Below, piece after piece: positions 8,491-51,211 of a stretch of 64,000 nucleotides of DNA. The stretch lies in NCBI GenBank assembly GCA_045542035.1, contig JAZQKG010000026.1:2363-66362 (forward strand). The letters are read 5' to 3'. A program made the translations under genes and the position numbers. This stretch comes from Eubacteriales bacterium. GTDB lineage: Bacteria > Bacillota > Clostridia > Oscillospirales > CAG-272. The notes beneath the pieces were generated by a model, which worked only from the letters and a program-made list of their open reading frames with translations, was not told where the DNA came from and searched no databases. Position 1 is the stretch's first letter. The number at the start of each line of letters is the position of its first letter.

Positions 8491-10905
8491 TTAGGCGTAT
8501 TTCTTCTCGGGGAGCTTTACGATTCTCGCGACGGCAACCGTCATATCGTCGCGCGTTTTTGAGTTTGCTATTGCCGCTGATAAAATAGAGTCGGCAAAAT
8601 CGCGTATATCCGGCTTTGCGGGTTTATTCAGAAGCTCTAGAAGCCAAGTAGAATCATCGGTTGACTGACTTACACCGTCGGAGAGCATAATAATATAATC
8701 TCCGCATTTAACTTCCACGCGGATGCGCTCCGCGTCGATATTCTTCATAAGTCCGAGAGGCGCCGTTTCCGAGCGGATGCGGAAAATAGAGCCTTCTCTT
8801 TTCACATAGGATGCCGCCGCGCCGCATTTATAGAACACGCCCTCACCGCTTATAAGGTCGAACTCAAAAAGGTCTATACTTGCCGAGCATTCCTCTCCCT
8901 TATTTCTTATTATCTGGTTTAACATATGGAAAGCCGTGCTTTTCGCGCAGGAGGAATTAAGAAGCTTTGAAATAAAATCCGATGCGAAAACAGAGGTTTT
9001 ATGCGCCACGTCTCCGCTGCCCATACCGTCGGATATAAGAGAATAGAAGCGCCCGTCGTCCGTTTCAAAGGATATTGCCGTGTCACCCGATATTTTTTCG
9101 CTGACCGAGCATTTTCCCGCCGTTGCGAACTCGACTGCATACGTGGCAGTTGCAGACACCTCAAAGAGCGCTATGTCGCCTTTTCGGTAATACTCGGGTG
9201 TGCCAAGTCGCACTCCCGCGGCTTCTTCAAGCGCGCGCCTTACCTCAGGCGAGGTTATTATTTTTCCGTCCCTGTCATCCCCCGCGCCTATCAGATGCTT
9301 ACATCTGTCACCGATAACTCTTATAATACCGTTATTCATTCCGGCAGAAATAAAGGCTTCGGTCAGCTTCTCGCTAAGCTGTGTGTCAATGCACCTTTCC
9401 TTTTCGTTTCCGCTGTGCACCTCGCGTATAAGCTTTCCGAGAAGCTCGTATTCCTCCGCAAGTGCTTCCATTTTCTTTTCCTTAAAGCGCTCGGCTTCAA
9501 AATGCCCCGCATAGCTCATTATGCTGTCAAAAAGTTCTGCGGCATTATGGCAATACTTTGGAGATATGCTGATATCATCCGCGAAAAGACGCTCTTTTTT
9601 ATATAATTTATTCGCTATAATGTCAATATTTTCGGCACACGGTGCGGGATTTTCGCTGACACAGTTTTGATAAAAATGACATGAGCGGCAAAAATCAGAA
9701 GCGCACTTTATAACGATATCCTTATATTCCTCATACCCAACGTCTCCCTCGCCCCGTCCGAAATTCCTTAGCGGCTCGCTTATGCCTGAGAGAGCCTCTG
9801 CAAGTCCGTCAATATAGGAATTTGCCGAATTTCTGTAGGCTATTGCCGTCGTGGCAACCATCTCCTTGGCATCCTGATTTCCGTTTTCTACACTTCCCGC
9901 AGCAGCGGCAGGCTCGGACGTGAGCTTTCTTAAAATGGGAAATGACAAAAGCGCTCCCGTCACGTACTCGGGAAAGGTGGAAAGAAATCCGAGAGTTCCC
10001 CCAACGTACGCGCTCCATAAAGAAAGTAACACGCCCCCGCCTATAACGGCATACGGAATACCCGCGCCGAAGAAAATGCCCGCTCCAATCCCCACAAGCG
10101 CAAAGGAAACCGAAAAAACACTTGATATGCCGAGAGAGGAAACAAATCCCACAGCCATTGCTCTGATAGCTCCGAAGCGGCGAGCCACGATAAGAGTTAT
10201 CATAGCCGAAAACATATACGACGGACTTATTCCAAGCACGTTATAATTCCTTAGCGACAGAGATACGAGAAATACAAAGAGAAGAAAAGTTCCCTGAAAG
10301 AGATAAATCCCGAATTTTTCCTTATCGTTTTTTGTTGCTTTGAATATATTTTTTCTGCTTGAAAGAAAATCGGAGAAGCTTATTCCGCTGTCAAGCACCC
10401 CCGAAAAGCAGAATGTAAACACCGCTGAGAGAAGCACCTGCAAAACTCCGTAAAGTATATACTTAAAGACAAAGCCGCCGAGAAGCACCTCGTATGCCGC
10501 TCCGACGAAAGCGCCTATTGTCACCGCGGATATTCTGAGAATAAGCGGCTCAGAAAAAAGCTCCTTTTCACCGCGCTTTTCACCGCCCGATATTATCACC
10601 CTCAAAAAAACTACTATTATTGATATAATTGCGTGTATAACGCCAATTTTTCCGAGCGAGAGAGCGCCCGCAACGCATCCTATAAGAGAAACCCATACTC
10701 CCCTTGGAAGCACTCCGACAAAGGCAACCCCAAGAGGATACGCTCCAAAAACTATATGGCATCTCGCAAAAAGAAAGGATATTATTAAAATAACCGCGTC
10801 ATAGAGCAGAGCCGTAGCATCCCCCCTTCTTTTTTCAATCTCCCCCTTTATCATTAATTCAATGCTATCGAAAAATCCGACGCCTTCAGTTTTTTTGTTT
10901 TCCAT
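8491..10905 (-). CDS. spoIIE: Stage II sporulation protein E (SpoIIE; polytopic membrane PP2C phosphatase)
   Basis: 804 aa. The N-terminal third is about 10 TM helices. The C-terminal PP2C domain carries SGDTAISFE...LISDGMGSG...IMLSDGV motifs. Confidence 0.9.
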   Translation of the reverse strand: MENKKTEGVGFFDSIELMIKGEIEKRRGDATALLYDAVILIISFLFARCHIVFGAYPLGVAFVGVLPRGVWVSLIGCVAGALSLGKIGVIHAIISIIVVFLRVIISGGEKRGEKELFSEPLILRISAVTIGAFVGAAYEVLLGGFVFKYILYGVLQVLLSAVFTFCFSGVLDSGISFSDFLSSRKNIFKATKNDKEKFGIYLFQGTFLLFVFLVSLSLRNYNVLGISPSYMFSAMITLIVARRFGAIRAMAVGFVSSLGISSVFSVSFALVGIGAGIFFGAGIPYAVIGGGVLLSLWSAYVGGTLGFLSTFPEYVTGALLSFPILRKLTSEPAAAAGSVENGNQDAKEMVATTAIAYRNSANSYIDGLAEALSGISEPLRNFGRGEGDVGYEEYKDIVIKCASDFCRSCHFYQNCVSENPAPCAENIDIIANKLYKKERLFADDISISPKYCHNAAELFDSIMSYAGHFEAERFKEKKMEALAEEYELLGKLIREVHSGNEKERCIDTQLSEKLTEAFISAGMNNGIIRVIGDRCKHLIGAGDDRDGKIITSPEVRRALEEAAGVRLGTPEYYRKGDIALFEVSATATYAVEFATAGKCSVSEKISGDTAISFETDDGRFYSLISDGMGSGDVAHKTSVFASDFISKLLNSSCAKSTAFHMLNQIIRNKGEECSASIDLFEFDLISGEGVFYKCGAAASYVKREGSIFRIRSETAPLGLMKNIDAERIRVEVKCGDYIIMLSDGVSQSTDDSTWLLELLNKPAKPDIRDFADSILSAAIANSKTRDDMTVAVARIVKLPEKKYA

Positions 10906-13797: not shown

Positions 13798-16700
13798 ATG
13801 GCTAAAAGAATATTCACAGCTGAGCAAATGTCGGCTATTGAAACCGAAAATAAAACTCTCCTCGTCTCTGCCGCGGCAGGCTCGGGAAAAACGGCGACCC
13901 TCACCGAGCGCATAATTCACAGGCTGACAAGCATCGAAAATCCCGAGGACATCAGCGGCATGCTAATCGTTACCTTCACGAATGCCGCGGTTGAGGAGCT
14001 TCGTTCCCGTATAGGCGGAGCAATCAGAGAAAAGCTGCTTGAAGAGCCAGAAAATAAAAGACTGGAGCGTCAGCTTTATATGCTGCCTTCGGCAAGGATA
14101 TCTACTATAGACTCCTTCTGCAACGATATTTTAAGAAGCAATGCCGAGCGCTTTGGAATATCTCCGGGATACCGCATAGCAGACCCGATAGAAGCAAAGA
14201 TTCTTGCTAATTCGGTGTGGACGGCTCTGATAGACGCCGCCTACAACGGAGAGCTTACAGACGTCACGTCTCCCGAGGATTTTGAGGAGCTTGCAAGCTG
14301 TCTTACTGCGGTTAAAAACGACTCGGCTCTTGAAGAGATATTCGAGCTGCTTTATGACAGGACGAAAAGCATAGAGGAAGGCTCGGACATTTATTTCAGA
14401 TTTGCCGAAAGACTCAAGGAAAGCGCGGATCTCCCCACCGAAGAAAACATATACGCAAGATATGCGATTAACTGCGCGAAATCTGCGGCGGCTCATTATA
14501 TCGAACTTTACCGCAAGATTGAAAAAGAGCTTTCCGTCGGCTCTGTCGGCGAGGATAAATATCTAACCGTACTTTACGGTGACTTACAGGCATTAAATAA
14601 TATTTTGTCCGCAAAAACCTACGCGGAAATGAAGCTTTCGCTCTCTCACACCTTTAATCCCCTGCCCCGCCTCACAGATAAAACCGACGCTCAGAAGAAA
14701 TTCGCTGCGGCAAGAGACAGTCTGAAGAAAGCTCTCGGGGAAAAAATTCAAGACAGATATTTCGTTTATACCGAAGAGGAATGGGGCGGTCATCTTAGAA
14801 ATCTTGCAAAGCTTATAGGAACTCTTGCAGGATTTATAGACAAATTTGACAAGGTGTATTTTGAAGAGAAGCGCCGGCGCGCGATTCTTGAATACTCTGA
14901 TATCGAGAAACTGACTTATATGAGCCTTTACTCCGAGGACGGAAGTCTTACCGAGCTTGCGCACTCCTTAAAGGAGCAGTTCACCTCTGTTTATATTGAC
15001 GAATACCAGGACGTAAACGCTCTTCAAAACAAGATTTTTGCCGCTATATCAAAAAACTCCAACAGATTTATGGTTGGAGACATCAAGCAATCTATATACG
15101 GATTCAGAAGCGCGAAACCCGAAATTTTCGCGGATATGAAAAACACCTTTCCCCCTCTTGACAAATCAGATTCGGATACCGCGTCTATATTTATGTCTAA
15201 AAATTTCAGATGCGACAGGGGAATTATTGATTTCGTCAACGACATTTTTGACATTATGTTCGGTATCGCGAGGGACAGCATCGGATACGTAAACGAGGAC
15301 AGGCTGGAATACGCGAAAATTCACGCGGACGGAGAACCCGAATATACCGTTCCTGAAATTCATCTTTTCGCAAAGGACTCGGTCGAGGACGCCGAAGGAG
15401 AAAAAAAGGCATCCGACCTTCCGCCCGTGTGGGTTGCAAAAAAAATCAAGGAGCTTCTCGACACTGGCAGGCTTGATTCGGGAGAGCCGGTGACCCCATC
15501 TGATATAGCTATAATTTTAAGAAAAGACGGAGGAAGAAGCGCGAAATACGCCGAGGCGCTTAAGGCAGTCGGAATAAGCGCGGCACTCCCCGAAAACACG
15601 AACTTTTTCTTTAACGCTGAAATTCAGCTAGTACTCTGCCTACTTAACACGATTGACAACCCCTGCCGCGACATATATCTTGCAGGTCTTATGCTTTCCC
15701 CACTCTTTGATTTCACGGCAAGCGAGCTCTATCTGGCGCGAAAATGCTTTAAAGCTCCGTCGCTTTGGAATTCAATTAAGCTTTATTGCGAGGCAAACCC
15801 AAGCTTCACAAAGGGAAGATGCTTCATAAATGAAATTGAGCATTACAGAAGCATCTCCGAGGGAATGAAGGTTGACGCGCTTATTCTCCGCCTTTACAGC
15901 GAGACCGGCATTCTTGCGTTAGCCGCAAGGAACGGGTGCCGCGAAAACCTTATGCTCCTTTACGATTACGCGCGCAAATTTGAAGCGTCATCATTCGAGG
16001 GACTTTATAATTTTATCCATTACGTTAACACGGTTATAAGCTCAGGCGCTGAATTCACCTCAAAAAAAGAGGGTGAAGACAAGGATGCGGTGACTATAAT
16101 CACAGTTCATAAATCAAAGGGTCTTGAATACCCTATCGTCTTTCTTGCCGACGCATCAACGTCCTTGGTTTCGGCAAACGACCGCAGAGCAAGGGTTGCG
16201 TACTCGGATGAGATGGGAATAGGATTCAGAACGAGAACCCCCGGCGGAATTGCGCTCGTTGAAAGCCCGGTATACAATTCGATAATCGATTACAATACCG
16301 AAAAGAGCCTTGAAGAAGAGCTTAGAGTATATTACGTCGCCCTAACGAGAGCACGCGAGCGCCTTTTCATTAACGGCGCTCCCGCATCGGATAAAGAGAG
16401 CTTCACAGAATCGGCAAGCCTTAGAAAAATGCATCTTTCGCCATACAGCCTCAAAGAAATGAAATCATTCACCGATATACTTTTCCTCTCAGACACGAAA
16501 GCCGAGGTTATATGGGAAGATGCGCCGACCAATTCGGAGCAAGAAGAAAATACGGAAAATGCGCCCGAAATTACAGAAACAGAAGACCCGTGCGAAGATA
16601 TTTACGAGCTTCTCACCGAGCGCTTCTCATTTAAATACCCCAATTTGCACCTCACTGAATTGCCGGAAAAAATGTCTATATCCAAAATACACCCCGCGGT

Positions 16701-17355
16701 TCTTGACGGAACCGATGAGGATACGCGGCTCTCGATTGACCCATCAAAAACCAAAGTAATGGAAACAAGCGGTAGTCTTCCCGAGTTTATTTGCGGTTCC
16801 GGAAGCCGCGAAAACGCAAGACGAGGCATAGCGACGCACAATTTCCTGCAGTTCTTTGATATTGAAAGCCTTAAATCCGCAGGCGCAGCAGAGGAGCTTG
16901 TGCGCTTAATAAACGACGGATTTATCTCCAAGGAAAATTCCAAGAGAGTGCGCCTTGATGAGATTCGTCTTTTTGAAAAATCAAAGCTGTTTTCAGAAAT
17001 GCAAAGCGCGGCGAAGCTTTACCGCGAGTTTCGGTTTAACGTTATGCTCCCCGCATCCCTTTTCACACAGAACGAGGAAAAGAAACAAGCCTTGAAGGAT
17101 AGGAAAATACTTCTCCAAGGAGTTATAGACTGTATTATAATTGACACGTACGGAAATATCCATCTTATTGATTATAAAACGGATAGACTCACGAAAGCCG
17201 AGCTTTCTGATAAATCGCTCGCGCAAAGGACACTTGCCGAAAAGCATTCGCTCCAGCTTTACTACTACTCACTCGCTATTGAAAAAATATTTTCTAAACC
17301 TCCCGCATCCCGAAGAGTGTATTCCCTGCCCCTCGGCGACACGGTAGACGTATAA
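13798..17355 (+). CDS. addA: ATP-dependent helicase/nuclease subunit A (AddA/RexA-type UvrD helicase with C-terminal PD-(D/E)XK nuclease)
   Basis: Walker A AAAGSGKT, DEYQDVN, UvrD C-terminal VALTRARE, and C-terminal nuclease GVIDCIIID...LIDYKTD. Confidence 0.85.
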   Translation: MAKRIFTAEQMSAIETENKTLLVSAAAGSGKTATLTERIIHRLTSIENPEDISGMLIVTFTNAAVEELRSRIGGAIREKLLEEPENKRLERQLYMLPSARISTIDSFCNDILRSNAERFGISPGYRIADPIEAKILANSVWTALIDAAYNGELTDVTSPEDFEELASCLTAVKNDSALEEIFELLYDRTKSIEEGSDIYFRFAERLKESADLPTEENIYARYAINCAKSAAAHYIELYRKIEKELSVGSVGEDKYLTVLYGDLQALNNILSAKTYAEMKLSLSHTFNPLPRLTDKTDAQKKFAAARDSLKKALGEKIQDRYFVYTEEEWGGHLRNLAKLIGTLAGFIDKFDKVYFEEKRRRAILEYSDIEKLTYMSLYSEDGSLTELAHSLKEQFTSVYIDEYQDVNALQNKIFAAISKNSNRFMVGDIKQSIYGFRSAKPEIFADMKNTFPPLDKSDSDTASIFMSKNFRCDRGIIDFVNDIFDIMFGIARDSIGYVNEDRLEYAKIHADGEPEYTVPEIHLFAKDSVEDAEGEKKASDLPPVWVAKKIKELLDTGRLDSGEPVTPSDIAIILRKDGGRSAKYAEALKAVGISAALPENTNFFFNAEIQLVLCLLNTIDNPCRDIYLAGLMLSPLFDFTASELYLARKCFKAPSLWNSIKLYCEANPSFTKGRCFINEIEHYRSISEGMKVDALILRLYSETGILALAARNGCRENLMLLYDYARKFEASSFEGLYNFIHYVNTVISSGAEFTSKKEGEDKDAVTIITVHKSKGLEYPIVFLADASTSLVSANDRRARVAYSDEMGIGFRTRTPGGIALVESPVYNSIIDYNTEKSLEEELRVYYVALTRARERLFINGAPASDKESFTESASLRKMHLSPYSLKEMKSFTDILFLSDTKAEVIWEDAPTNSEQEENTENAPEITETEDPCEDIYELLTERFSFKYPNLHLTELPEKMSISKIHPAVLDGTDEDTRLSIDPSKTKVMETSGSLPEFICGSGSRENARRGIATHNFLQFFDIESLKSAGAAEELVRLINDGFISKENSKRVRLDEIRLFEKSKLFSEMQSAAKLYREFRFNVMLPASLFTQNEEKKQALKDRKILLQGVIDCIIIDTYGNIHLIDYKTDRLTKAELSDKSLAQRTLAEKHSLQLYYYSLAIEKIFSKPPASRRVYSLPLGDTVDV

Positions 17356-17415
17356 TGTACTATAACACCCAAATTTAATTACATTTGGCTAATATTAATA
17401 TTTAGAAACAAGAAA

Positions 17416-17452
17416 AGGGTGTGTCTCAAATTTTGCATTTGAGACACACCCT
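17416..17452. terminator. Strong hairpin separating addA from the low-GC island
   Basis: 15-bp perfect stem AGGGTGTGTCTCAAA / TTTGAGACACACCCT with a 7-nt loop. Confidence 0.7.
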
Positions 17453-17462
17453 CTTTCGCATA

Positions 17463-17822
17463 TTATACCTCGGTGTTAATATGAGCTGTTTCTTCATTGC
17501 TTTCTTTCGCATTGTTTATGGTATTCTGCGTAAGAATCGGAACTACAAAGCTAAGCCCAAAGAAGCAAAGTACAAAGTAAAATATACCAGAAGATTTTCT
17601 TCCCGAAATTTCTCCATCTTTAATACCGGTCATATACGCCCAATAGAATGAGTAAATTCCAAGTGTAATAATAGTATACACAACCGCTACAACACCGCTT
17701 GCAGTTTTTGTCTTTGCCAATTCATTTGTATCATTCGTAATGCATATAAACCAATAAATATAATAAATACCAAGTGTTATTATGCAAAAGAATATCGCCA
17801 TAGGCACACTTCTTTTTTTCAT
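17463..17822 (-). CDS. DUF4234-type small multi-pass membrane protein
   Basis: Two copies of the TLGIY..YW hallmark (TLGIYYIYWF, TLGIYSFYWAY) embedded in hydrophobic helices. The start is 15 nt downstream of the patatin gene. Confidence 0.65.
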   Translation of the reverse strand: MKKRSVPMAIFFCIITLGIYYIYWFICITNDTNELAKTKTASGVVAVVYTIITLGIYSFYWAYMTGIKDGEISGRKSSGIFYFVLCFFGLSFVVPILTQNTINNAKESNEETAHINTEV

Positions 17823-17837
17823 AATTTGCCCCCCTTT

Positions 17838-18737
17838 CTAATAAAGTTTTTTGCTACATTTGCGATCATTTCGCAAAGTTTTGCCAATCGTATTAAATAT
17901 AGTTAATAGTCCGTCTGCTGAATCATGCCACTGCCGCTCCGTGTGCTCAGATACAAAAATATCGTTTATTCTTTTTCTCAGACTGTTTCTTGAAATTCCC
18001 GTACCAAATATTTTTTTAGATATTTTAATACCGTATTCTCTTGACGAAATAATCATTTCTTTCACATAATCGTGTGAGAAATCAAAATGACGCTTTTTGA
18101 AATCGTTGTTTATTGAAACATCAATATCCAATATAGGTATATCGGTTTTGAATTCCTTTCTATAATTGTATCGTGGATGAAAGTGCATTACTATTATTAA
18201 ATCAAGCTGTTCCCTTGCGGTAAGAAATTCGCTTTGCATTTTTATCACAGGATACAACGGGATGTTATCTACGGCACCGCCGTCAATAGCTAAACGATGC
18301 TCTATAATTTTAGGCATACCGCAAATAAAAGGAAAATTCACAGCACTCTCAAAATAATTTTTCCAAAACGGGTTATAATGACCGTATATCCAAAAATATT
18401 TCGTTGTTAACAGCGGAATGTATGTTATAGGAAAGCAGATTGGAATATGAGCTTTGTCGTTTAATGAAAAAAATGAGTTCATAGCACTGTGCAAAAGATT
18501 CTTTGAACAAACCTGCCAAAACAAATCGAAACAATTAGATATGTTTATAGATTCGTATATGTCTTGAAGCTCTGATAGCTTATTTGTTGCAAGCGCATAT
18601 GCGGTAAATATACCCATAGATGCACCTGATATGACCTTTATGTTGGAATAAGGAATATATTCGAGAAGTGCTTGAGTAAAACCTATTTGATATGCACATT
18701 TGCTAATCCCACCTGAGTAAACTAACCCGATATTCAA
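17838..18737 (-). CDS. Patatin-like phospholipase
   Basis: Oxyanion motif YSGGISKCAYQIG, nucleophile elbow GASMG, and catalytic Asp in AIDGGAVDNIP. TTG start 2 nt after the upstream stop. Confidence 0.8.
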   Translation of the reverse strand: MNIGLVYSGGISKCAYQIGFTQALLEYIPYSNIKVISGASMGIFTAYALATNKLSELQDIYESINISNCFDLFWQVCSKNLLHSAMNSFFSLNDKAHIPICFPITYIPLLTTKYFWIYGHYNPFWKNYFESAVNFPFICGMPKIIEHRLAIDGGAVDNIPLYPVIKMQSEFLTAREQLDLIIVMHFHPRYNYRKEFKTDIPILDIDVSINNDFKKRHFDFSHDYVKEMIISSREYGIKISKKIFGTGISRNSLRKRINDIFVSEHTERQWHDSADGLLTIFNTIGKTLRNDRKCSKKLY

Positions 18738-18739
18738 AA

Positions 18740-19198
18740 TTAAACAAGCTCTTCCTTTGCTTTATTTACTGCGTCCTTTATTTTATCTACGCCCTTATTA
18801 ACCACTTCTCCTATGCTTTTCGCTTTGTCAAAAGCGGTTCCGAAAATAGCCCTTCCCTTAGCTTCTGATAATTTCATATCCGTTTTTGTTATTTCAGCTA
18901 AAAGCTCCAAAATATATTTGTCTAGCATCTGCTTTGCCCTGTTAAATGCGTCTATACCCTTTACTTTATAAAAACAGTAAACAGAATCTTTTATACCCAT
19001 CATATAATAATCAATATTTTTTTGGTCACTCTCATTAATTAGGTATTCTCCGTTTTCTATACAAAGGCAATATGTGTCTACCATTTTCTTAATATGCTTT
19101 ATTTGCTTTTTTGAATCGGAAAAGTTTTCTAAAAGTTCAGCAAACAAATTAAATTTTTTAAGAATGTTTTTTGTGCTTTCTAAGCTTACCATACTCAT
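18740..19198 (-). CDS. Hypothetical protein, predicted all-helical, no recognised domain
   Basis: First gene of the island operon. I prefer the ATG at 19198 (MSMVSLEST), 8 nt after GGAGG (19211-19207). The track start at 19240 lacks an RBS. The C-terminus is an amphipathic K/D/A-rich segment. Confidence 0.6.
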   Translation of the reverse strand: MSMVSLESTKNILKKFNLFAELLENFSDSKKQIKHIKKMVDTYCLCIENGEYLINESDQKNIDYYMMGIKDSVYCFYKVKGIDAFNRAKQMLDKYILELLAEITKTDMKLSEAKGRAIFGTAFDKAKSIGEVVNKGVDKIKDAVNKAKEELV

Positions 19199-19286
19199 AA
19201 TTGAGTCCTCCAAAGGTGTAATTTTGTTTCTACTTGACATGTTTCAACTAAAGTTATTATAATGCTACAATTAATAGCACTATCCT

Positions 19287-19315
19287 ATTATACACCCATA
19301 GATTAAATTTGTCAA
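19287..19315 (-). promoter_or_regulatory. Consensus sigma-A promoter of the patatin operon
   Basis: On the minus strand: TTGACA (19315-19310), exact 17-nt spacer, TATAAT (19292-19287). Confidence 0.65.
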
Positions 19316-19348
19316 CCCATAGATGATTATAAATTTCACCCATAAGAT
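19294..19348. repeat. Three direct repeats ACCCATA(A)GAT, candidate operator
   Basis: ACCCATAGAT at 19294-19303 and 19315-19324; ACCCATAAGAT at 19338-19348. Spacings are 21 and 23 nt. Repeat 1 fills the promoter spacer and repeat 2 abuts and overlaps the -35 by 1 nt. Confidence 0.5.
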
Positions 19349-19385
19349 ATATAATTATAACAATAGATTGTTTGTGAGGTAAAAT

Positions 19386-19700
19386 ATGGGAGACGAGAAA
19401 TTGCTTAAAGAGATTGGCGCACGTATAAACGCTAGAAGAAAAGAATTGTCTATAACGCAAGAACGATTGGCTGAGTTGATGGACGTTTCTATTCAAATGA
19501 TATCTAATCTCGAACTTGGCAAAAAGGCTATAAGACCCGAAAATCTCGTTAAATTATGCACATCACTTAATGTAAGCGCTGACTATATTTTGCGAGGGAT
19601 TCGTGCTGATTGGGAAATTGGCGGATTCTTTGAAAAATATAAGAGATTACCAACAGAAAAACAAGAATTACTTGATAAAATAATAGACAGTTGGGATTGA
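19386..19700 (+). CDS. XRE-family helix-turn-helix transcriptional regulator
   Basis: Typical HTH_3 segment: IGARINARRKELSITQERLAELMDVSIQMISNLELGKK. Confidence 0.85.
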   Translation: MGDEKLLKEIGARINARRKELSITQERLAELMDVSIQMISNLELGKKAIRPENLVKLCTSLNVSADYILRGIRADWEIGGFFEKYKRLPTEKQELLDKIIDSWD

Positions 19701-19750
19701 TATTTTACCTTGCTACTTAAAAGTTAAGTGGTATTTGCTTCAAAAATAAA

Positions 19751-19787
19751 AGAGGGCAGCTCAGTTTTTGAACTTGAGCTACCCTCT
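19751..19787. terminator. Bidirectional hairpin at the right edge of the island
   Basis: AGAGGGCAGCTCA / TGAGCTACCCTCT stem, flanked by an A-run upstream and T-rich sequence downstream. Confidence 0.7.
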
Positions 19788-19798
19788 TGTCTTAATAT

Positions 19799-21370
19799 CT
19801 ATTTTCTTTTAACGTTTGCGAATGAAATTATATCGTCGAGCGCGTAATCGTAATAGACGATTTCCTCGAAATACTCCTCACCGTAGTAATCGAGCATTTC
19901 TTTCTTTATTTCAAGAAGGCGCTTTTGGCGTTCCTCTTCTGTTTTAATAGCGTCAAGCTCGGATTTATATATTTCATCAGCATAATAGCCGAGGTATTCT
20001 TCTACCACTCCGTTACAAAGCCTTTCAAATTCATCAGAGGGCGGAACGAGATTTTCTTCTCTTATAATATAGTAGAACATCATCTTCTCTACTATTACCT
20101 TCTCAGCCTTGGCGGTTATATGGTCAATCCAGCTTTCGCCTGCGGAAAGTCCGTAATAATCCTTAGCGAATTTATCAACCGAGTCGTATGCAGATGAATA
20201 ATAAGCTTCGTAGGTTGCAACGGTCTCGTTGTAATACTCCTTATAAATCTCATTTACGTCGGTCTCGGGAAGCTTCTTAACCTTCACTTTCGTGTGGTAA
20301 TATTCCCACATTGCCTCCTCGATAAGAGCGCTCTTCACCTCTTCGTTTTCTGCAAGCGCAAGGCTTCTCAGGTATTCCCTATGCTTCTCAACAAGAGTCT
20401 CTCCGCCATATGAGGAAAGTTCCTCGGCTGTCACCTTAAGGGTATCCGTGATAAATTTTTCGTTATATTCGGGTGTGTTATAAACGTTGATATATTTAAT
20501 ATAAACGTCAAACTTAACGTCAAGTCCGCGAAGAGATTTTTCCTTGTAATCCGAGGGAAAATGCGCGTCTATCGTCAGAATATTCCGTGACGCTCTTTGC
20601 GCGTGAGTGACCGTCATATCAAAATAAACCGCTGAGCCGCTTCCATAAGGGAAGGTTACCGACTCTGATATTTTTTTCCCGATTTCCTTTGGCGAGCCGG
20701 TCTTTCCGCCGGGATTCTTTACTCCCTCAAAATAATCCTTAAATCCCGTGCCGTAGAGTGCGTCAATTCCGTTTTCCGAAAGGTCGATTCGCTCAGAGAC
20801 CTTCTGCACGGTTTTTCCGTCGGGGAGCATAGCAGAATAAGTCAGGTAGATTACGTCACCCGCCTGGACTGTTCCCGAGTTTTCAAGCTCAAGCCTTGCA
20901 AAGTCCTTGGGATTTACGCCTATAAGGGATTCTTCAAAGCCGGGTATAAAGGACAGCGAGCCTATTTCAAGAGTCGATATATTCCCGAAAATATTTGACG
21001 CTCCCGCAACCTCAGACTGTCTTCCGTTTTCATCTACCGTGTATCCTCTGTAATAGAGATGAACCTTATCTCCCACGGATATGGGAAGATTCGTTACGTT
21101 TCCGCCGTTATACTGAGGCTCTTTATCCCTGTTTTGATAAAGCAGAGCCATTATTTTGCGCTCAACGTCCTTATCGGTTACCTCGTCAAATGAAAGGGTA
21201 AGCTCGTAATTTTTATAATCGTCTTCCGAAATTTTAATATACTTTGAAAGGTCGTCTTTCATATAATCGAAGTCGCGCTGCATAATTATAACGGCAACGA
21301 GTCCGAAAACCGCTGCCAGAACAAGAACGGCTGCTACGGCTGATATTATAACTATATTTCTTTTTTTCAT
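19799..21370 (-). CDS. Membrane-anchored trigger-factor-like protein with FKBP-type PPIase domain
   Basis: N-terminal TM helix. FKBP/trigger-factor PPIase block GDKVHLYYRGY...LEIGSLSFIPGFEESLIG. Long helical, acidic C-terminal region. Confidence 0.6.
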   Translation of the reverse strand: MKKRNIVIISAVAAVLVLAAVFGLVAVIIMQRDFDYMKDDLSKYIKISEDDYKNYELTLSFDEVTDKDVERKIMALLYQNRDKEPQYNGGNVTNLPISVGDKVHLYYRGYTVDENGRQSEVAGASNIFGNISTLEIGSLSFIPGFEESLIGVNPKDFARLELENSGTVQAGDVIYLTYSAMLPDGKTVQKVSERIDLSENGIDALYGTGFKDYFEGVKNPGGKTGSPKEIGKKISESVTFPYGSGSAVYFDMTVTHAQRASRNILTIDAHFPSDYKEKSLRGLDVKFDVYIKYINVYNTPEYNEKFITDTLKVTAEELSSYGGETLVEKHREYLRSLALAENEEVKSALIEEAMWEYYHTKVKVKKLPETDVNEIYKEYYNETVATYEAYYSSAYDSVDKFAKDYYGLSAGESWIDHITAKAEKVIVEKMMFYYIIREENLVPPSDEFERLCNGVVEEYLGYYADEIYKSELDAIKTEEERQKRLLEIKKEMLDYYGEEYFEEIVYYDYALDDIISFANVKRK

Positions 21371-21376
21371 AAAACC

Positions 21377-21814
21377 CTACTCTCCAAAAGAATCGGCGTA
21401 ATCTGTCGCCAGCTTATCGCACCGCTCGTTATAATCGTGTCCGTTATGACCCTTTACCCAAACGAAGTCGACCTCGTGCTGCTTTGTAAGTCCGAAAAGG
21501 CGCTCCCAAAGGTCGGGATTTTTAAGCTCTTCCTTTCCTCTTTTCCAGCCCGCTTTATGCCACGAGAACACCCAGCCCTCGTTGAAAGCGTCGACGAGAT
21601 ACTTTGAGTCGGAATAAAGCGTCACCCGACACGGCTCGCGAAGCGCCTCAAGGCCCGCTATTGCCGCCATAAGCTCCATTCTGTTATTCGTGGTCAGCGG
21701 CTCACCGCCCGAAATTTCCTTCTCGTATTTACCGTAAACGAGAATAGCTCCGTATCCGCCCCTGCCGGGATTTCCGCGGCACGCGCCGTCTGTATATAAA
21801 GAAACTTCCTTCAT
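21377..21814 (-). CDS. rnhA: Ribonuclease HI
   Basis: [25 protein letters not shown] and [17 protein letters not shown] motifs. Confidence 0.9.
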
Positions 21815-21852
21815 TTCATTTCCTTTATTTTTAGATTAAAAACGTTTTATAA

Positions 21853-21884
21853 AGAAATCCGACAGAGCTTACTGCCGGATTTCT
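21853..21884 (-). terminator. Hairpin downstream of the 684-aa lipoprotein gene
   Basis: AGAAATCCG / CGGATTTCT stem, 21 nt after the stop. Confidence 0.5.
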
Positions 21885-21905
21885 TGATTATTTCAAAGTG
21901 TCAAA

Positions 21906-23960
21906 TTATTCCGCTTTTGCCTCAGATGCGGGATCGCCGAATTCGTAAGCGCCAATCTTCTTGTATTCGAAGGTTACTACCTCGTATCCGTTTGCGTCAG
22001 CATCCGCGGTCTTCTCATCATACTCGAGGAAGTAGTTCATAAGCTTATCAAACTGGTATGCGTAAAGCACGCTGTTTTCACCGTATGAATACTCGTTGTA
22101 TGAATAGTTGTTATCGGGGTTCTTCTTGTATTCCTTAAATTCCTTATCGGTTGCAACTACGCCGTAATCCTTTGCGGCAACGTAGATCTGAACAACAGGC
22201 TTAACGTACTCTGCTGCCTTTTCCTTGATAGCCGCGATAGCCTCGTCATATGTCTTAACAGACTTAATGTCGGATGTTACAGCTGCAACGAGGAACTTCT
22301 TGAATGAGCCCTTATACTGCTTGTAGTTAGAAATCTTTTTGCTTGAGTCGTAATCTTCCTTATAGAATTCATACTCGTAGTTTTCCATCATCTGCTCGTA
22401 TGTCATCTTAACAGCTTCATCGGGAGTACCGCTTACTGCGATATTCTTTGTAAGGAAGAAGTAAATCTCAGCAGCGAGATTCATCTTTATCTCGTTGTTA
22501 TAATTCTTCTGAAGATAATTGTAAGTAGTTATCTTATAACCCTTAACGAGCTTGTCAGAGGTTGCAACACCGTCAACGGTGATTCCGAGAAGAGTCGCAA
22601 TCTTAGTGTCTTTATCGGCAACCTTGGTGTCACGGAGGGTCTTAGCATCGTCACGCGCCTTCGTTGCATTCGTGAGGTTTGTCTCAGCCTTTGTGAGAGA
22701 ATCCTTCTGAGCGTCGGTTACGGCGTCGCCTGCCTTATCTACGGCATCCTTAGCCTTGTCACGCGCGGTGGTAGCCTCGGTAACGTCCTTTTCCTTATTT
22801 GCGAGAGCGTCCTCAGCCTCTTTAACTTCCTTCTGAAGCTTTGCAATTGTCTCAACAAGAGCCGCAAGAGTTACGTCCTTTTCACCGTCCTTGGTGATAT
22901 AGGGCTTAACAAGCTCGTTGCGCTCTGCAATCTTTGCCTCGTCGTCCTTATTATCAGCGTCAAGACCTGCGTACTCTTCACCGAAGAGAAGCTGATAAAT
23001 TATATCCGCGTCAATCTCTTCACCGAGAATAGTGTCGACAAGATTTGTTGCGTTAAACTCGGGAACACTTATAAAGTGTGTGGGGTAGATATGATAGGTA
23101 AGCTCCTTACCCTTGAGGTTTCTCGACTTACCGGTCGTATCGGTAACATTCTTATCCTCATCGGCAAAGGTAACGTCGTTGAAGCTTGTAACCTCCTCGC
23201 CCTTAGCTACCCAGTTAATCTTGATTCCGGAATATGAAACCTCACCCTTACCTTCTTCGGTAATAGTGGTTTTATCAAGAGCCTTGTTTACTTCCTTGCC
23301 GCAAAGATATGAAGCAAGAGAGGCTGCCGTAGCGCCCTCAGCGGGAGCTGCAGCGATAACGATTCTGTCATTGGTACGGGTTCCGGACTCTTCCTTTTCA
23401 ACTCCGTCATCTCCGGTAACCTTATAGCTATAGGTATAGGTTACGTAAACCACAGCGCCCTCGGATGTCGTTCCGGTTGTATCGGATGAATATGCCTTAT
23501 CGGTGAAATCAAACGAAGCAAGCGCGGTTGCAACAGCGTCAGCAACCTTCTCAAGATCCGTCGCGCCAAGCTGAACGCTTACAGCGTTTGACTGGTTCAT
23601 ATTCGAAGCGTAAAGCACAGCCTCGGTTCCGTCAAAATCAGCAGTTACGTAATAGCAGTAGTAAACGAGATCGCGCACACCGGGCACACCTGTCGTTTTC
23701 TTGTCTGCTTTATCCGCAGAGTTTGCAAGTGCCGCGTAGATGTTATCAAGCACCTTGCTTTCTCTCTTCGCGGGGTCGGCGGTGAAGTCACCGTCTTCAA
23801 TAATAATCTTTTTAAGAGCTTCTTCAAACGCTGCCTTATTCTCAGCGGAGAATGTAGCGTATGCGGTAAGGTCGTCCTTCGCAAAGCTGTATCCGCAGCT
23901 GACAAGCGAAAGAGTAAGCATAGCGACTACAAGAATTAATCCTATAATTCTCTTTTTCAT
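21906..23960 (-). CDS. Large surface lipoprotein, function unknown (coiled-coil centre)
   Basis: Signal peptide plus lipobox LVSCGY. Central K/D/A/T-rich repeat-like helix (DALANKEKDVTEATTARDKAKDAVDKAGDAVTDAQKD...). No catalytic motif recognised. Confidence 0.6.
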   Translation of the reverse strand: MKKRIIGLILVVAMLTLSLVSCGYSFAKDDLTAYATFSAENKAAFEEALKKIIIEDGDFTADPAKRESKVLDNIYAALANSADKADKKTTGVPGVRDLVYYCYYVTADFDGTEAVLYASNMNQSNAVSVQLGATDLEKVADAVATALASFDFTDKAYSSDTTGTTSEGAVVYVTYTYSYKVTGDDGVEKEESGTRTNDRIVIAAAPAEGATAASLASYLCGKEVNKALDKTTITEEGKGEVSYSGIKINWVAKGEEVTSFNDVTFADEDKNVTDTTGKSRNLKGKELTYHIYPTHFISVPEFNATNLVDTILGEEIDADIIYQLLFGEEYAGLDADNKDDEAKIAERNELVKPYITKDGEKDVTLAALVETIAKLQKEVKEAEDALANKEKDVTEATTARDKAKDAVDKAGDAVTDAQKDSLTKAETNLTNATKARDDAKTLRDTKVADKDTKIATLLGITVDGVATSDKLVKGYKITTYNYLQKNYNNEIKMNLAAEIYFFLTKNIAVSGTPDEAVKMTYEQMMENYEYEFYKEDYDSSKKISNYKQYKGSFKKFLVAAVTSDIKSVKTYDEAIAAIKEKAAEYVKPVVQIYVAAKDYGVVATDKEFKEYKKNPDNNYSYNEYSYGENSVLYAYQFDKLMNYFLEYDEKTADADANGYEVVTFEYKKIGAYEFGDPASEAKAE

Positions 23961-24161
23961 GTTTTTCTTTCCTCTATGTTAATTTATTTTTAAACATTTA
24001 TTCGGGTTTCCCCGTCTGACTTTTATCTTCCACATTGTGGTAAAATATAGTGAGCAAACACAATTATAACATATCAAAACGAAAAATGCAAATACTTTTT
24101 TCAATTTTTCATATATTTTTATAATTATTTTTGATTTTTTTCTGTTTTTCACTCAATTTGC

Positions 24162-27050
24162 TCATTTTTCATCGGGATATCCTACGTCGGGAGTAATTTT
24201 TTCCGCGTTAAGAAGTCCGACGAAATTCGTTACTATCTTTTTGAACGCGAACGTGGAGATATAAAAATCTGATACGGGAGTAGTCGCGGCGTTTCCGTTT
24301 GCATCCGCCTGATAAATGCTTACGAGTACGCGTCTGTCATCCGCTCTGTAAAACTCATATACATACGTATACGCTGAGGATTTTATATCAAGGGTCATAC
24401 GCATAACAAGATTCTCAGCCTTCATTGCATCGGCTCTTTCCGCCTCGGGCATAACGTCAACGTAGGTTGTGAGGTATATCATTCTTATGGCTTCTTTAAA
24501 ATAAGCCGTTCCAAGCGAGTCGGGATAAACCTCTTTAAGCTCGGGGTCATTCGGGTAATAGCTTTCATAAAGCTCGGTAAGGCTGACGCCCTCACTGTAT
24601 CCCTTATTTGCCATAAACTCGGTAAGCTTTGTCGGAGTTGCATCAGCGCTCGGCGTTACGAATGCGGTTATCTTATTAAAAGAAGACGTGTAGCCGTTTG
24701 CCGAGGTCTCGTAAGTTATCGTCTGATGTATAAGATCAAAGTCATAGCTTCCCTTAAGGTCGGACATGTAAAATTCCATTCCAACGTCTTCAATATCGTT
24801 GATATCCATTAGAATTATGTTTCTTCTCGCCCAGAAGGTTTCAAAATCATAATTAAGGAATATAAATTTATCTGCGGATATCTCAGTTACGATATTGTAA
24901 AGGTCTGAGGCAACGTATCTCTTATTCGTTACAGGGTCGACCTCGCTTATATAAAGCGTAAATCCAAGAGTATCATAGTAGGCGTAATCGTCAAGCTTAT
25001 CCGAAAGCTCCTCACCGCTTCCGTCGTCGGGGGTATAAGCGTAAATACCTCTCGGAAGCTCGAAATAAACGGTATGAGCGTAAAGCCCGTATCTATCCAT
25101 TACCGCCGGTGTAATACCTACTTCAACCACAGCATCACCGTAAAGTCCGTTCGCGCTTCCGGTCGTTGCGTCCTTTTCAATACCTCCAAGAACTTGCACA
25201 ACGCTCTCGCAGGCCGCGGAATTAAGTCCGTAAAGCCTGTGCTCGTCTTCCATAAGATTCTCGTAAAGGGATTCCCCGTAATAAGGATCTCTGTCCGAGC
25301 TGTTCTGAAATCTGAACGCAGATATAAGCTTACTTGTAATAAAATAATCTATTCTTGAAATTTTATAAGAGGTGAAATCGAGGAAATACTCGTAATATGC
25401 GGTTGAATCGTCAAAGGATATATTAAGATTTCTCGAGACGCTCTTACCGATAAGAGCCGCCTTAATCTCCGCGTTAAGTCCTTCTGTCGCCGCCGACATA
25501 TCCATCATAAAGGTTTCTTCGCTCTTTACTACACCGTCAATAACTAACTGATAACGGTATCCGACAATAGAATCAGCGGCAACCGTGTCAATTTTATTGC
25601 CTTTTCTGTCGCGTATTGAAATTATTTCGGTAATTACGTATTTACCGGTCGACTTAAACGCGTTATCCTTGGTATACTCAACTGTGAAGGATATATAATC
25701 GGATTCGGCAAGCTGTCCTATCGGCGCATTTCTTATCTTTTCTGCCGCATCGGATGGTATGCCCGCAGCCGAAATATCAATTACGGCATGCATGGGATGA
25801 GAAGCAACAGACTTTCCGTCAACCGTGCATGTATAGGTTACTTTAACGAGATTTCCACTGTTGCCGAGCGTCGCGCCTGCCGCCGTTACGTCCTGACCGT
25901 CTGTCACGAATGACTCGATAGCCGTTATAACGTAGTTATACAAAACGGAGGATTTTCCCTCAAACTCTATTAGATTTGAATTAAAAGTAAGCGTCGCTTC
26001 AATCTCGGGCGTGTGACTTCCTATCTGCTTTCCGAGCAATGAATTAACGAGCCGACGGTATATTTCGTTTTCCTTGTACTTTGAGAGGTCTATTTCAACA
26101 AGACCGTCTCCCTCTCTGTCATATCCGTCGCTCGAGGCATCCTCGGTTATACTCGGTTTAATTATATCGGTATAAACTATAACCTTTGATTCGTCAGGTA
26201 CTGTCTCACCGACAGTATCATGCTTTTCATTAATCCACTGATAATAACCTGTCGTAAGATAAGGACCGTATCCGCTATCCTCGGCAAGTCCGTCGGATAC
26301 GAGAGCCGCCTTCAAAAAGTTCGAATATGAAGAAAGCGCGTAATTATAATAGTTATTGATTGATGAGTATACGTAAGGTCTGTTATCTATTATGAAATAA
26401 AAGCCCGTGCCGAATATTCCGGCTTCGCCAATCTTCACGGTATGGTTTTTAAGGTTTCCCATGTCGTCGTAGTAGGTGAAATAAACCTTGCGCGCCTTAT
26501 CGTCTGTAAGACCGTACACCTTTAGCTGTGAGTTCCTCTCGTCAGCGTTCTCTGAGAGAGGGATTCTCTCTTCAAAATACGGCATCTGAAGAGCTATGCA
26601 AAGATAATCAAGCAAAGTATACTGCGAATATCCGTCGCTTGTATCTATTTTGAAAAGGTCGGAATATTCAAAGCCTAAATCCTCTTCGCAGATTTCAGGA
26701 TAATAAATAACCTGCTCTCCCTTTTCATCGGTATAATACATATTGAATTCGGAATTTTCTTCAAGTCTAATGAATCCGTATTCGCCTTTTTCGTCTTCTT
26801 TTTCATCTTTAATCGAAATATACTGTATTTGATTCTTATCGTTTACGACCGGGTATGCAAGAGCAAGTCCGTTCTGGCGCGCCTCGCCCTCGATTATCTC
26901 CGGCTGCTGTGTCACCTTCGTCTCCTCTTCCTTATCAGAGAGAATGGCGCTGACCGGTATACATACCGCGAGAAGCACGGCAAACACCGCGCATAATATG
27001 AGAGACAGCTTTTGTTTTTTTGTAAATTTCTTTTTTTCTATATGCTTCAA
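24162..27050 (-). CDS. Large membrane-anchored extracytoplasmic protein, DUF4340-like (last gene of the ABC/GldG operon)
   Basis: 962 aa with a single N-terminal TM helix. The position after the GldG-like genes and the LKVYGLTDD-type segment resemble DUF4340 proteins as I recall them. Confidence 0.5.
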   Translation of the reverse strand: MKHIEKKKFTKKQKLSLILCAVFAVLLAVCIPVSAILSDKEEETKVTQQPEIIEGEARQNGLALAYPVVNDKNQIQYISIKDEKEDEKGEYGFIRLEENSEFNMYYTDEKGEQVIYYPEICEEDLGFEYSDLFKIDTSDGYSQYTLLDYLCIALQMPYFEERIPLSENADERNSQLKVYGLTDDKARKVYFTYYDDMGNLKNHTVKIGEAGIFGTGFYFIIDNRPYVYSSINNYYNYALSSYSNFLKAALVSDGLAEDSGYGPYLTTGYYQWINEKHDTVGETVPDESKVIVYTDIIKPSITEDASSDGYDREGDGLVEIDLSKYKENEIYRRLVNSLLGKQIGSHTPEIEATLTFNSNLIEFEGKSSVLYNYVITAIESFVTDGQDVTAAGATLGNSGNLVKVTYTCTVDGKSVASHPMHAVIDISAAGIPSDAAEKIRNAPIGQLAESDYISFTVEYTKDNAFKSTGKYVITEIISIRDRKGNKIDTVAADSIVGYRYQLVIDGVVKSEETFMMDMSAATEGLNAEIKAALIGKSVSRNLNISFDDSTAYYEYFLDFTSYKISRIDYFITSKLISAFRFQNSSDRDPYYGESLYENLMEDEHRLYGLNSAACESVVQVLGGIEKDATTGSANGLYGDAVVEVGITPAVMDRYGLYAHTVYFELPRGIYAYTPDDGSGEELSDKLDDYAYYDTLGFTLYISEVDPVTNKRYVASDLYNIVTEISADKFIFLNYDFETFWARRNIILMDINDIEDVGMEFYMSDLKGSYDFDLIHQTITYETSANGYTSSFNKITAFVTPSADATPTKLTEFMANKGYSEGVSLTELYESYYPNDPELKEVYPDSLGTAYFKEAIRMIYLTTYVDVMPEAERADAMKAENLVMRMTLDIKSSAYTYVYEFYRADDRRVLVSIYQADANGNAATTPVSDFYISTFAFKKIVTNFVGLLNAEKITPDVGYPDEK

Positions 27051-27062
27051 AATCCGCCCTCC

Positions 27063-28784: not shown

Positions 28785-28791
28785 TTTTTCA

Positions 28792-49588: not shown

Positions 49589-50818
49589 TTACTTTTTATT
49601 GTTTTTAGCGTTTACCTGCGCCTGAACCTTGATAGGAAGTCCGAAAAGGTTGATAAATCCTGCGGAATCTGCCTGATTGTATACGTTATCCTCACCGAAG
49701 GTAGCAAGCTCCTCCGAATAGAGCGCAAAGTCACTCTTAACGCCCGCTTTTATAATATTACCCTTGTAAAGCTTGAGTCTTACCTTACCCGTAACGTTCT
49801 CCTGAGTCTTATCAACGAAAGCGGAAAGCGCCTCGCGAAGAGGAGTAAACCATTGTCCGTTATAAACAAGGTCGGCAAATGTAATTGCGAGCTCGCTCTT
49901 CTTGTGAGCTGTCATCTTATCGAGAGTAAGAGTTTCAAGATAGTTGTGAGCGAAATAAAGAATTGCTCCGCCGGGAGTTTCATAAACGCCTCGGCACTTC
50001 ATACCTACAAGACGGTTTTCGATAATATCAAGAAGTCCGATGCCGTTTTCACCGCCAAGCTTATTAAGAGCAAGAATAATTTCCTTAGCGCTCATTTTCT
50101 CGTCGTTAAGAGCTACGGGAATACCCTTTTCAAAATCAAGAGTAATATAGGTAGGCTTATCGGGCGCTGTCATCGGAGATACGCCCATCTCAAGAAATCC
50201 GGGCTTATCGTAAAGCGGCTCGTTCCATGCGTCCTCAAGGTCAAGTCCCTCGTGAGAAAGGTGCCAGAGGTTCTTATCCTTCGAGTAGTTTGTTTCACGG
50301 TTAATTTTAAGGGGAATGTTATGCGCCTCAGCGTAGTCAATCTCCTCCTCGCGAGACTTTATATCCCACTCACGCCAAGGAGCGATGATATGCATGTCGG
50401 GAGCAAACGCCTTAATGGTAAGCTCAAAACGAACCTGGTCGTTTCCTTTTCCGGTACAGCCGTGGCAGATTGCGTCAGCGCCCTCAGCCTTAGCTATTTC
50501 AACTATTCTCTTTGCGATAACGGGACGCGCGAACGACGTTCCGAGCATATACTCCTCGTAAAGAGCGCCCGCCTTAACGGTAGGAATAATATAATCGTCT
50601 ACAAACTCGTCGGTCAAATCTTCAACATAAAGCTTGGACGCGCCCGTCTTAAGCGCCTTTTCCTCAAGCCCTTCAAGCTCGTCTGCCTGACCGACGTTTC
50701 CCGATACAGCGATAACCTCGCAGTTGTTATAATTTTCCTTGAGCCACGGAATAATTATTGAGGTGTCAAGTCCTCCCGAATAAGCTAATACTACTTTTTT
50801 GATGTCTTTCTTTTCCAT
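49589..50818 (-). CDS. argG: Argininosuccinate synthase
   Basis: [12 protein letters not shown] motif. I prefer the ATG at 50818 (MEKKDIKK) with GGAGG (50831-50827) over the track start at 50902. Confidence 0.9.
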
Positions 50819-50885
50819 TTTTAAAATCCTCCAAAACTTTAGGCAAACTGCCATTTTAATTTTATACGCTGATATTGTACCACTA

Positions 50886-50903
50886 ATTGAATAAATATGC
50901 AAT
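50886..50903. promoter_or_regulatory. Candidate ARG box (ArgR/AhrC operator) overlapping the arg promoter
   Basis: ATTGAATAAATATGCAAT matches 16/18 positions of the recalled consensus TNTGAATWWWWATTCANW. It overlaps the minus-strand TTGCAT-17-TACAAT promoter. Confidence 0.45.
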
Positions 50904-51153
50904 AGTTTTTTGAAAAATTATTAATTTTCAGCAAAGTGCACGAGTATTATATATAAGCTAAATACTCTTTTGTGAATATTTTGTGCAAATTTATGCATAT
51001 TTTCTGCATATATGCGCATAAATAGTCATTCGTTGATTTAAATGTAAAGCGAAAGATGCGATACCTATATTGACGAAGCCTTAAACCCGGCGAATCGCAC
51101 TTACACCCGACGAAAACGGACTTGTACACATTCCCTGATAAATATCAAATTAA

Positions 51154-51211
51154 AAGGCATAGAAATTTCAAGCAGCTATACTAACTTAGCTAATCGTAAA
51201 TTCTATGCCTT
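51154..51211. terminator. Terminator after galT
   Basis: 11-bp perfect stem AAGGCATAGAA / TTCTATGCCTT with a large loop and T-runs on both sides. Confidence 0.6.

Follow-up and report, generated by a model that had tools for sequence, protein, structure and literature searches.

What would a compact, AT-rich set of four genes that includes a patatin-like phospholipase do for its host? The question is raised by positions 17463–19700 of a 64,000-nucleotide stretch of contig JAZQKG010000026.1 from a Eubacteriales bacterium; the whole of this stretch is called the window below. Here, a gene for an XRE-type regulator on the plus strand is divergent from a packed minus-strand operon, which consists of the gene p152, a patatin gene, and a gene for a DUF4234 protein. 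These four genes are referred to as the cassette. A preliminary description, prepared from the letters of the window alone, had regarded them as a low-GC accessory island and as a candidate defence or toxin module. We tentatively favour the reading that the cassette is a repressed, horizontally mobile toxin module, resembling toxin–antitoxin (TA) and abortive infection (Abi) systems, which would act against the membrane lipids of its own cell. A toxin–antitoxin-like module fits the anatomy of the cassette better than a classic defence-island system. This reading is put forward because the cassette is a solitary, compact, AT-rich, and exchanged unit, in which an intact enzyme is encoded together with a fast-evolving coupled partner, a membrane protein, and a phage-type repressor over a strong promoter.

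Organization of the cassette

The cassette comprises the following genes:

17463–17822, minus strand: DUF4234 gene, 119 aa, third gene of the operon
17838–18737, minus strand: patatin gene, 299 aa, TTG start, second gene of the operon, presumed effector
18740–19198, minus strand: p152 gene, 152 aa, first gene of the operon, open reading frame (ORF) extendable to 19240 (166 aa)
19386–19700, plus strand: XRE gene, 104 aa, presumed repressor

An ORF check confirmed the four genes and their coordinates as previously described, including the gap of 2 nt between the p152 stop codon and the TTG of the patatin gene and the gap of 15 nt between the patatin and DUF4234 genes. The true start of p152 is most likely the ATG at 19198, because it is preceded by a GGAGG sequence at a distance of 8 nt and the database homologues begin at this codon as well. 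The DUF4234 gene is preceded by a strong ribosome-binding site, AAAGGGGGG, located 7 nt upstream. The low GC content claimed for this region was borne out. Positions 17463–19700 have a GC content of 0.330, whereas the window averages 0.443 (stretches of the same size: sd 0.025). It is the lowest-GC stretch of its size in the 64 kb, and the next-lowest non-overlapping one has a value of 0.387. The GC content at third codon positions (GC3) is 0.30–0.31 in the cassette genes and 0.46–0.60 in the flanking genes.

Occurrence in other genomes

A scan of one genome per species yielded 55 patatin loci, about 45 of which were taken as true relatives. Most of these belong to Christensenellales-like metagenome-assembled genomes (MAGs) from the gut, and a few come from Izemoplasma/Acholeplasma. 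Across the related loci, an ORF of 136–216 aa is located directly upstream of the patatin gene and ends 3–15 nt inside its start. An iterated hidden Markov model (HMM) search identified a p152 homologue overlapping the patatin start in 39 of the 45 loci. About 22 of them have a DUF4234 gene downstream of patatin, and 15 have a divergent XRE-type gene. With these counts, the trio and the XRE gene recur as a unit in other genomes and at different sites. The suggestion that p152 and patatin are coupled agrees with the overlap or 2-nt gap, which is conserved in nearly all of the 39 loci. No further conserved neighbours were found beyond close species groups when the ORFs flanking the 45 loci were clustered all against all. 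The four-gene form was located at six or more housekeeping sites that are unrelated to one another; at a seventh, the cassette lacks DUF4234:

addA/p523 (the window, L057, and L060)
next to ylmH/rotamase
next to a PHP-domain gene
V-ATPase/GDPD
M56 peptidase/pyrimidine operon
DUF378/PemK
dnaE/pfk, without DUF4234

As far as the tools and libraries used here show, the four-gene combination, the orphan p152 family, and the movement between species without a recombinase are undescribed. The components themselves are of known kinds, namely a patatin effector, an XRE repressor, and a small membrane protein. Literature searches on DUF4234, on patatins with antitoxin or anti-phage functions, and on Christensenellales yielded no description of the cassette.

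No mobile-element genes were found beside the cassettes of the p152 clade; only a distant variant, which lacks p152, adjoins integrases. In these distant p152-less variants the patatin is still paired with a DUF4234 or a TM2 protein. One such variant is located next to a tyrosine integrase, and in another genome a serine recombinase and a Rep protein are adjacent. In this variant, the loci L041 (4154–10075) and L152 (2597–9084) both encode, in this order, a patatin, a zinc-ribbon protein with six transmembrane segments, and a zinc-ribbon TM2 protein, and both lie upstream of nrdD. In L152, a small divergent helix-turn-helix (HTH) gene is also found just upstream. The helical partner of the Bacteroides-type patatin loci (L046, L047) and of L045 was rejected as a relative of p152, with an hhalign probability below 1%. 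In L155, a PemK/MazF-family toxin gene (9478–9843) is located directly beside the four-gene cassette; it is the only TA-related neighbour encountered.

Exchange of the cassette between species

In the relatives L060 and L057, the cassette is present at the same addA/p523 site with full flanking synteny. For comparison, the blocks 17463–19720 of the window, 9479–11760 of L060, and 9481–11760 of L057 were used. The cassette DNA is 85–96% identical to that of L060 and L057, whereas the syntenic flanks share only 55–72% identity. The change in identity takes place within about 100–200 bp, near 17500 on one side and near 19720 on the other, where the outer genes end. Synonymous divergence (dS) is 0.17–0.5 for the four cassette genes and is saturated (>1.4) for addA, p523, and the RNase H gene. 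Selection on all cassette genes is purifying. The differences in identity and dS provide strong evidence for a recent horizontal exchange of the cassette between species of the window clade, and the low GC3 points in the same direction. The relatives thus carry the same genes at the same locus, but with a foreign composition and with far lower divergence than the flanks. None of the outcomes that the preliminary description had named as refuting it was obtained. The assignment as a foreign accessory cassette is supported by the composition and by the identity values alike. One possibility is that an allele was replaced by recombination inside a pre-existing cassette, which would explain why the cassette is at the same site and yet younger than its flanks. 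In most loci the cassettes are AT-richer than the flanking DNA, most strongly in the XRE-bearing ones.

Both hairpins of the preliminary description are real and lie at the edges of the cassette:

17413–17455: left hairpin, 19-bp stem, between the convergent addA and DUF4234 genes (terminator scan)
19750–19787: right hairpin, lying where the XRE and p523 genes converge, followed by a U-run on the minus-strand RNA

The left hairpin folds with −32.3 kcal/mol (z −9.5). Its sequence varies between species, and conservation of the cassette extends about 10 nt beyond the DUF4234 stop codon. The left hairpin is a bidirectional intrinsic terminator, marking the left edge of the high-identity block. 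The right hairpin folds with −30 kcal/mol and a z-score of about −4.4 for either strand, and it sits just beyond the right edge of this block at about 19720, in an intergenic region that is not conserved between species. We interpret both hairpins as terminators of the usual bidirectional kind that separate convergent genes. They were rejected as boundaries of a mobile element, because they are terminators with sequences that are not conserved between species. Neither direct nor inverted repeats were detected at the flanks of the cassette, and no tRNA was found near it. Among the metagenomic relatives retrieved through the neighbouring RNase H gene, no clean empty addA/p523 site was found. The cassette is missing beside p523 in more distant relatives, but there addA is no neighbour of p523 either.

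The flanking genes of the cassette are addA on the left and p523 on the right, and both are convergent with the outer cassette genes. The gene designated addA (13798–17355) encodes a fusion of a UvrD helicase and PDDEXK_1, and it is preceded by truB, not addB, in the window and in the relatives. Beyond the cassette, a minus-strand run of large ORFs (523, 684, 962, 573, and 502 aa) extends over 19799–30300. The first four have orthologues in related contigs that have no Pfam match on record. The products p523 and p684 diverge fast, with 40–56% identity between species, and p523, which the preliminary description had called trigger-factor-like, has a hydrophobic segment at its N-terminus. Of the cassette-sized stretches in the window, the one at about 50600–53000 ranks second-lowest in GC content (0.39 compared to a mean of 0.44).

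Promoter and putative operators

The XRE protein matches the Pfam family HTH_3 (PF01381) with 52.5 bits (cut-off 23; E 5e-14). Over its full length it shows weak matches to the PADLOC model capH (9e-10) and to the NCBIfam model phage_RstR (2e-12, below the curated cut-off). All named XRE subfamilies of NCBIfam remained below their cut-offs. The region between the XRE and p152 genes contains the following elements:

19234–19263, plus strand: promoter-like site TTGACA-18-TATAAT, 12/12 match, pointing at the XRE gene and lying inside the 5′ untranslated region of the operon
19287–19315, minus strand: operon promoter TTGACA-17-TATAAT, 12/12 match to the sigma-70 consensus
19291–19304, 19312–19325, and 19356–19369: three direct repeats, (A/C)CCCATAGAT-like, presumed XRE operators

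A near-consensus promoter, TTGACA-17-TAtAAT, is found at the same position in all 15 XRE-bearing loci. In the window, the direct repeats (ACCCATAGAT-like) overlap the −35 box and the spacer of the operon promoter. Other XRE-bearing lineages have their own repeats or palindromes over the promoter, at the same position. Because lineage-specific repeats or palindromes overlie a near-consensus promoter in every XRE locus, we infer with good reason that the XRE protein represses the operon through these promoter-overlapping repeats, which would be its operators. The exact 10-mer ACCCATAGAT occurs three times in the 64 kb, each time within the cassette. The third copy, at 18612–18621, lies inside the patatin gene and encodes the catalytic A-S-M-G; it is kept at +116 in L057, L060, L064, and L155. 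This internal copy was not counted as an operator, as coding constraint is probable there; an internal operator would be the alternative.

The plus-strand promoter-like site is kept in L060 and L057 and missing in L064. It is a candidate, and only a candidate, for the XRE promoter. The two 12/12 promoters face each other within 19234–19315, with predicted start sites about 10 nt apart, an arrangement that resembles a mutually exclusive switch. An Rfam scan of the leaders for a riboswitch or small RNA gave no match near the threshold.

The patatin-like lipase

The product of the second gene matches the Pfam patatin family PF01734 with 50.1 bits (gathering score 27.7; E 5e-13). It contains the oxyanion motif SGGISK (residues 8–13), the nucleophile elbow GASMG with Ser40, and the motif DGGAVDN with Asp152. 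In an alignment of 22 homologues, no exchange occurs at Ser40, Gly42, Asp152, or Gly153, and at least 90% of the sequences keep Gly9. The complete catalytic kit that had been noted from the motifs is thus upheld by conservation as well. The AlphaFold2 model of the protein has a mean predicted local distance difference test score (pLDDT) of 81.5 and a predicted template modelling score (pTM) of 0.86. Its top Foldseek neighbours are PlpD, CapV, and CapE (E 1e-9 to 1e-7, TM-score 0.5–0.6), followed by patatin, VipD, iPLA2, and ExoU; the Foldseek probability is 1.00 for PlpD, CapV, CapE, patatin, and VipD. Among the solved structures, the sequence profile matches only PlpD and VipD. Neither the window patatin nor any of the 22 homologues matches the patatin/CapV models of PADLOC, and the window patatin falls far below the cut-off of the RssA model of NCBIfam. 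This is a small family: 5.8 billion proteins contain 69 clusters of it, and every one comes from Clostridia MAGs. The nonsynonymous to synonymous rate ratio (dN/dS) of about 0.12 indicates purifying selection. The product is a genuine patatin, divergent and cytoplasmic, whose active site is intact; it is predicted to be a lipase.

The helical partner p152

Scans of p152 against Pfam, NCBIfam, PADLOC, and PHROGs gave no match. The AlphaFold2 model (pLDDT 68) shows a four-helix bundle at about residues 6–115 (pLDDT 70–87), followed by a helical tail of low confidence. A Foldseek search with this model returned generic helical bundles only, with E-values of at least 0.3. The C-terminal tail is a Lys-rich amphipathic helix throughout the family, and the tails have a median hydrophobic moment of 0.58, about 2.3 sd above that of shuffled tails. 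The earlier statement that the 152-aa protein lacks a recognisable motif and has an amphipathic C-terminus therefore holds with respect to the four libraries, the fold search, and the tail moment. Word-indexed searches with p152 gave only 4 and then 11 proteins, and the remainder of the family was obtained from the patatin-adjacent ORFs and from an exhaustive HMM search. The latter yielded 97 representative clusters, all of them standalone proteins of 87–177 aa. The family has no invariant residue, and its mean column identity is 27%. Between species where the patatins share 45–63% identity, p152 shares 15–37%, and its dN/dS is 0.19–0.33 compared to 0.12 for patatin. Thus, p152 evolves several times faster than patatin between the same species.

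Four of 32 p152 homologues weakly match the Apolipoprotein A1/A4/E repeat family (best E 4e-4). This similarity is compositional and is no evidence of homology. There is also a different view of the cassette, which we consider rather unlikely. The cassette would be an inducible module for the remodelling or turnover of membrane lipids, serving stress adaptation or lipid recycling and not killing. The patatin would act as a regulated (lyso)phospholipase, the DUF4234 protein would be a membrane adaptor, and p152 would deliver or limit the substrate in the manner of an apolipoprotein or perilipin. The four-helix bundle with its amphipathic repeats and the apolipoprotein matches agree with such a role of p152, but the hyper-variability of the partner and its lack of an invariant residue do not. 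Many loci are native in composition, lack XRE, and have housekeeping neighbours, and the position of the cassette is stable within a genus, as a lipid-remodelling function would have it; against this, the cassette moves among unrelated sites and is far younger than its flanks in the window clade. A GDPD gene adjoins one of the loci, but no lipid-metabolism genes are consistently linked. The purifying selection on all genes is also in keeping with a role in lipid turnover. However, where an XRE-type repressor is combined with a consensus promoter, the genes under control would typically be toxic or mobile cargo and not a metabolic operon.

The membrane-protein gene

The product of the third gene matches Pfam PF14018 (DUF4234) in two stretches with 81.3 bits (cut-off 25.3; E 5.6e-23), and its hydropathy profile shows three hydrophobic segments. 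In loci without DUF4234, the downstream gene sometimes encodes a non-homologous small membrane protein, either a TM2 protein or a zinc-ribbon protein with several transmembrane segments. The TM2 substitutes were considered as remote DUF4234 homologues and rejected, with an hhalign probability of 0.6%. The third slot of the cassette appears to be occupied by a membrane protein that is obligatory but replaceable.

A small multi-pass membrane protein accompanies the lipase in every case, the p152-less variants included. This could also be explained by a cassette for programmed autolysis or release. A holin-like membrane protein and the lipase would then cooperate, for example in the lysis of the mother cell or of kin in a spore-former. 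Sporulation genes are present in these genomes, but neither a cell-wall hydrolase nor a sporulation regulator is consistently linked to the cassette. DUF4234 has no known holin role, and the single paper that mentions it is uninformative. A related idea is that the patatin is the orphan effector of a signal made elsewhere in the genome; no signalling enzyme is found nearby. We regard this pair of explanations as very improbable.

Comparison with known systems

Among the known systems, CBASS (cyclic oligonucleotide-based anti-phage signalling system) is similar in that its effectors CapV and CapE are likewise cytoplasmic patatins, which use a Ser-Asp dyad, are about 300 aa long, and match the fold of the window patatin (E 1e-9 to 1e-7). 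The small divergent XRE repressor resembles CapH and matches the capH model. In contrast to CBASS, the cassette contains no CD-NTase cyclase and no CapP, and its patatin does not match the CapV HMM. The sequence identity to CapV and CapE is 12–17%, and PlpD matches equally well. CBASS has no counterpart of p152 or DUF4234. Assignment of the cassette to CBASS was rejected because of the missing cyclase, CapP, and CapV model match.

Another explanation is a dedicated anti-phage Abi system in the strict sense. A phage cue would relieve the control exerted by XRE or p152, and the lipase would destroy the membrane before progeny are released. This explanation overlaps with the toxin-module reading and shares its evidence. 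CapV and CapE are among the nearest structural neighbours of the patatin, but they match no better than PlpD. The XRE protein matches capH over its full length at 9e-10, but such HTH matches are unspecific. As is seen among defence effectors, the membrane component is exchanged in a modular manner; however, the loci have no defence-island context and no PADLOC match, and neither a CapP-type protease nor a cyclase is present. No protease gene is located within or next to the cassette, and no cyclase model appeared among the 25 most frequent of the 29 PADLOC families matched by the 129 neighbouring proteins. A strict Abi system is in our judgement unlikely.

Like type II and tripartite TA systems, the cassette has a small upstream gene that overlaps or abuts the enzyme gene and evolves faster than it, and it is solitary among housekeeping genes, mobile, and AT-rich. 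In three-component TA systems a separate HTH regulator is present, and the XRE protein of the window may take over this DNA-binding role. Type II systems differ in that p152 has no DNA-binding domain and the cassette has a third gene encoding a membrane protein. To our knowledge, no TA system with a patatin phospholipase as the toxin has been described, and none was found in the literature.

The secreted effectors ExoU (with SpcU) and VipD share the patatin core, and both were recovered by profile and fold searches. In ExoU, a four-helix bundle serves as the membrane-localisation domain. A four-helix-bundle protein is likewise present in the cassette, where it is supplied in trans by p152. No similarity between p152 and SpcU or the ExoU bundle was detectable. 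In contrast to the window patatin, ExoU and VipD are large, are secreted, and act in eukaryotic cells, where they are activated by ubiquitin or Rab5; the cassette has neither a secretion signal nor a secretion system. The type Vd autotransporter PlpD is the best profile and fold match among the solved structures. The window patatin differs from it in being cytoplasmic, with no POTRA domain, β-barrel, or signal peptide, and its host is of the Gram-positive type. In eukaryotes, the pairing of perilipins or apolipoproteins with the lipase ATGL (PNPLA2) also places a four-helix bundle and amphipathic repeats beside a patatin-domain lipase. This is an analogy only, as the composition-driven E-value of 4e-4 at best does not show homology, and we know of no storage of neutral lipid in bacteria of this group.

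Proposed function

In the toxin–antitoxin-like reading, which we prefer, the XRE protein would occupy the promoter-overlapping repeats in the resting state and keep the operon silent. The three proteins would be produced from one transcript once this repression is relieved, as might happen during infection or stress. The products p152 and patatin would be made in fixed proportion through translational coupling and would probably form a complex. With its membrane-seeking amphipathic tail, p152 might act as an antitoxin-like check on the lipase or as a gate for its access to the bilayer, and the DUF4234 protein would be the partner on the membrane side. Patatin set free at the membrane would hydrolyse phospholipids through its Ser40-Asp152 dyad, leading to arrest or death of the cell. 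Toxin–antitoxin-like modules often act in phage defence.

Several observations weigh against this reading. The 129 nearest neighbours in 33 loci belong to 155 Pfam families, nearly all of them housekeeping ones (ABC transporters, aminotransferases, glycolysis, tRNA modification, RuvC, and sporulation proteins among them), and their PADLOC matches are generic ones of the ATPase or cysteine-desulfurase type. PADLOC gave no match for the three operon proteins. No relatives were found in the phage, plasmid, and IMG/VR viral collections, and the cassette contains no sensor, cyclase, or NTPase. Of the earlier proposal of a defence or toxin module, the part that the genes match no named system stands; the defence label does not fare well, given the lack of a defence-island context in the 33 loci, of phage or plasmid copies, and of a sensor or cyclase. 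Unlike classic type II antitoxins, p152 has no HTH, ribbon-helix-helix, or AbrB match, and it may be either an inhibitor or an activator of the lipase. About two thirds of the loci have no XRE gene and are near-native in composition. In the clade of L004, L005, and L007, cassette and flanks diverge to a similar extent, which fits a long vertical residence. Because of this divergence and of the near-native GC content of the XRE-less loci, the p152–patatin pair appears to have been long retained in some lineages.

A more specific version of the TA-like reading is doubtful, but it can be formulated. The cassette would represent the first TA/Abi family with a patatin toxin, which would be gated by a co-evolving apolipoprotein- or perilipin-like partner and a small membrane receptor. 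It would be controlled by an XRE switch with face-to-face promoters and would spread between species of gut Clostridia as a bare, recombinase-less four-gene cassette.

If the role of the cassette were lipid remodelling, the bacterial pairing of a four-helix, amphipathic protein with a patatin would parallel the perilipin–ATGL control. If the cassette is a lipase toxin or immunity module, it would introduce a new control logic, in which a patatin is gated by a protein partner and not by a nucleotide signal. It would also place DUF4234 and the orphan helical family, with its roughly 100 clusters, in a functional context for the first time. The cassette would further serve as a case study of recombinase-less movement between abundant, uncultured Christensenellales-like species of the gut.

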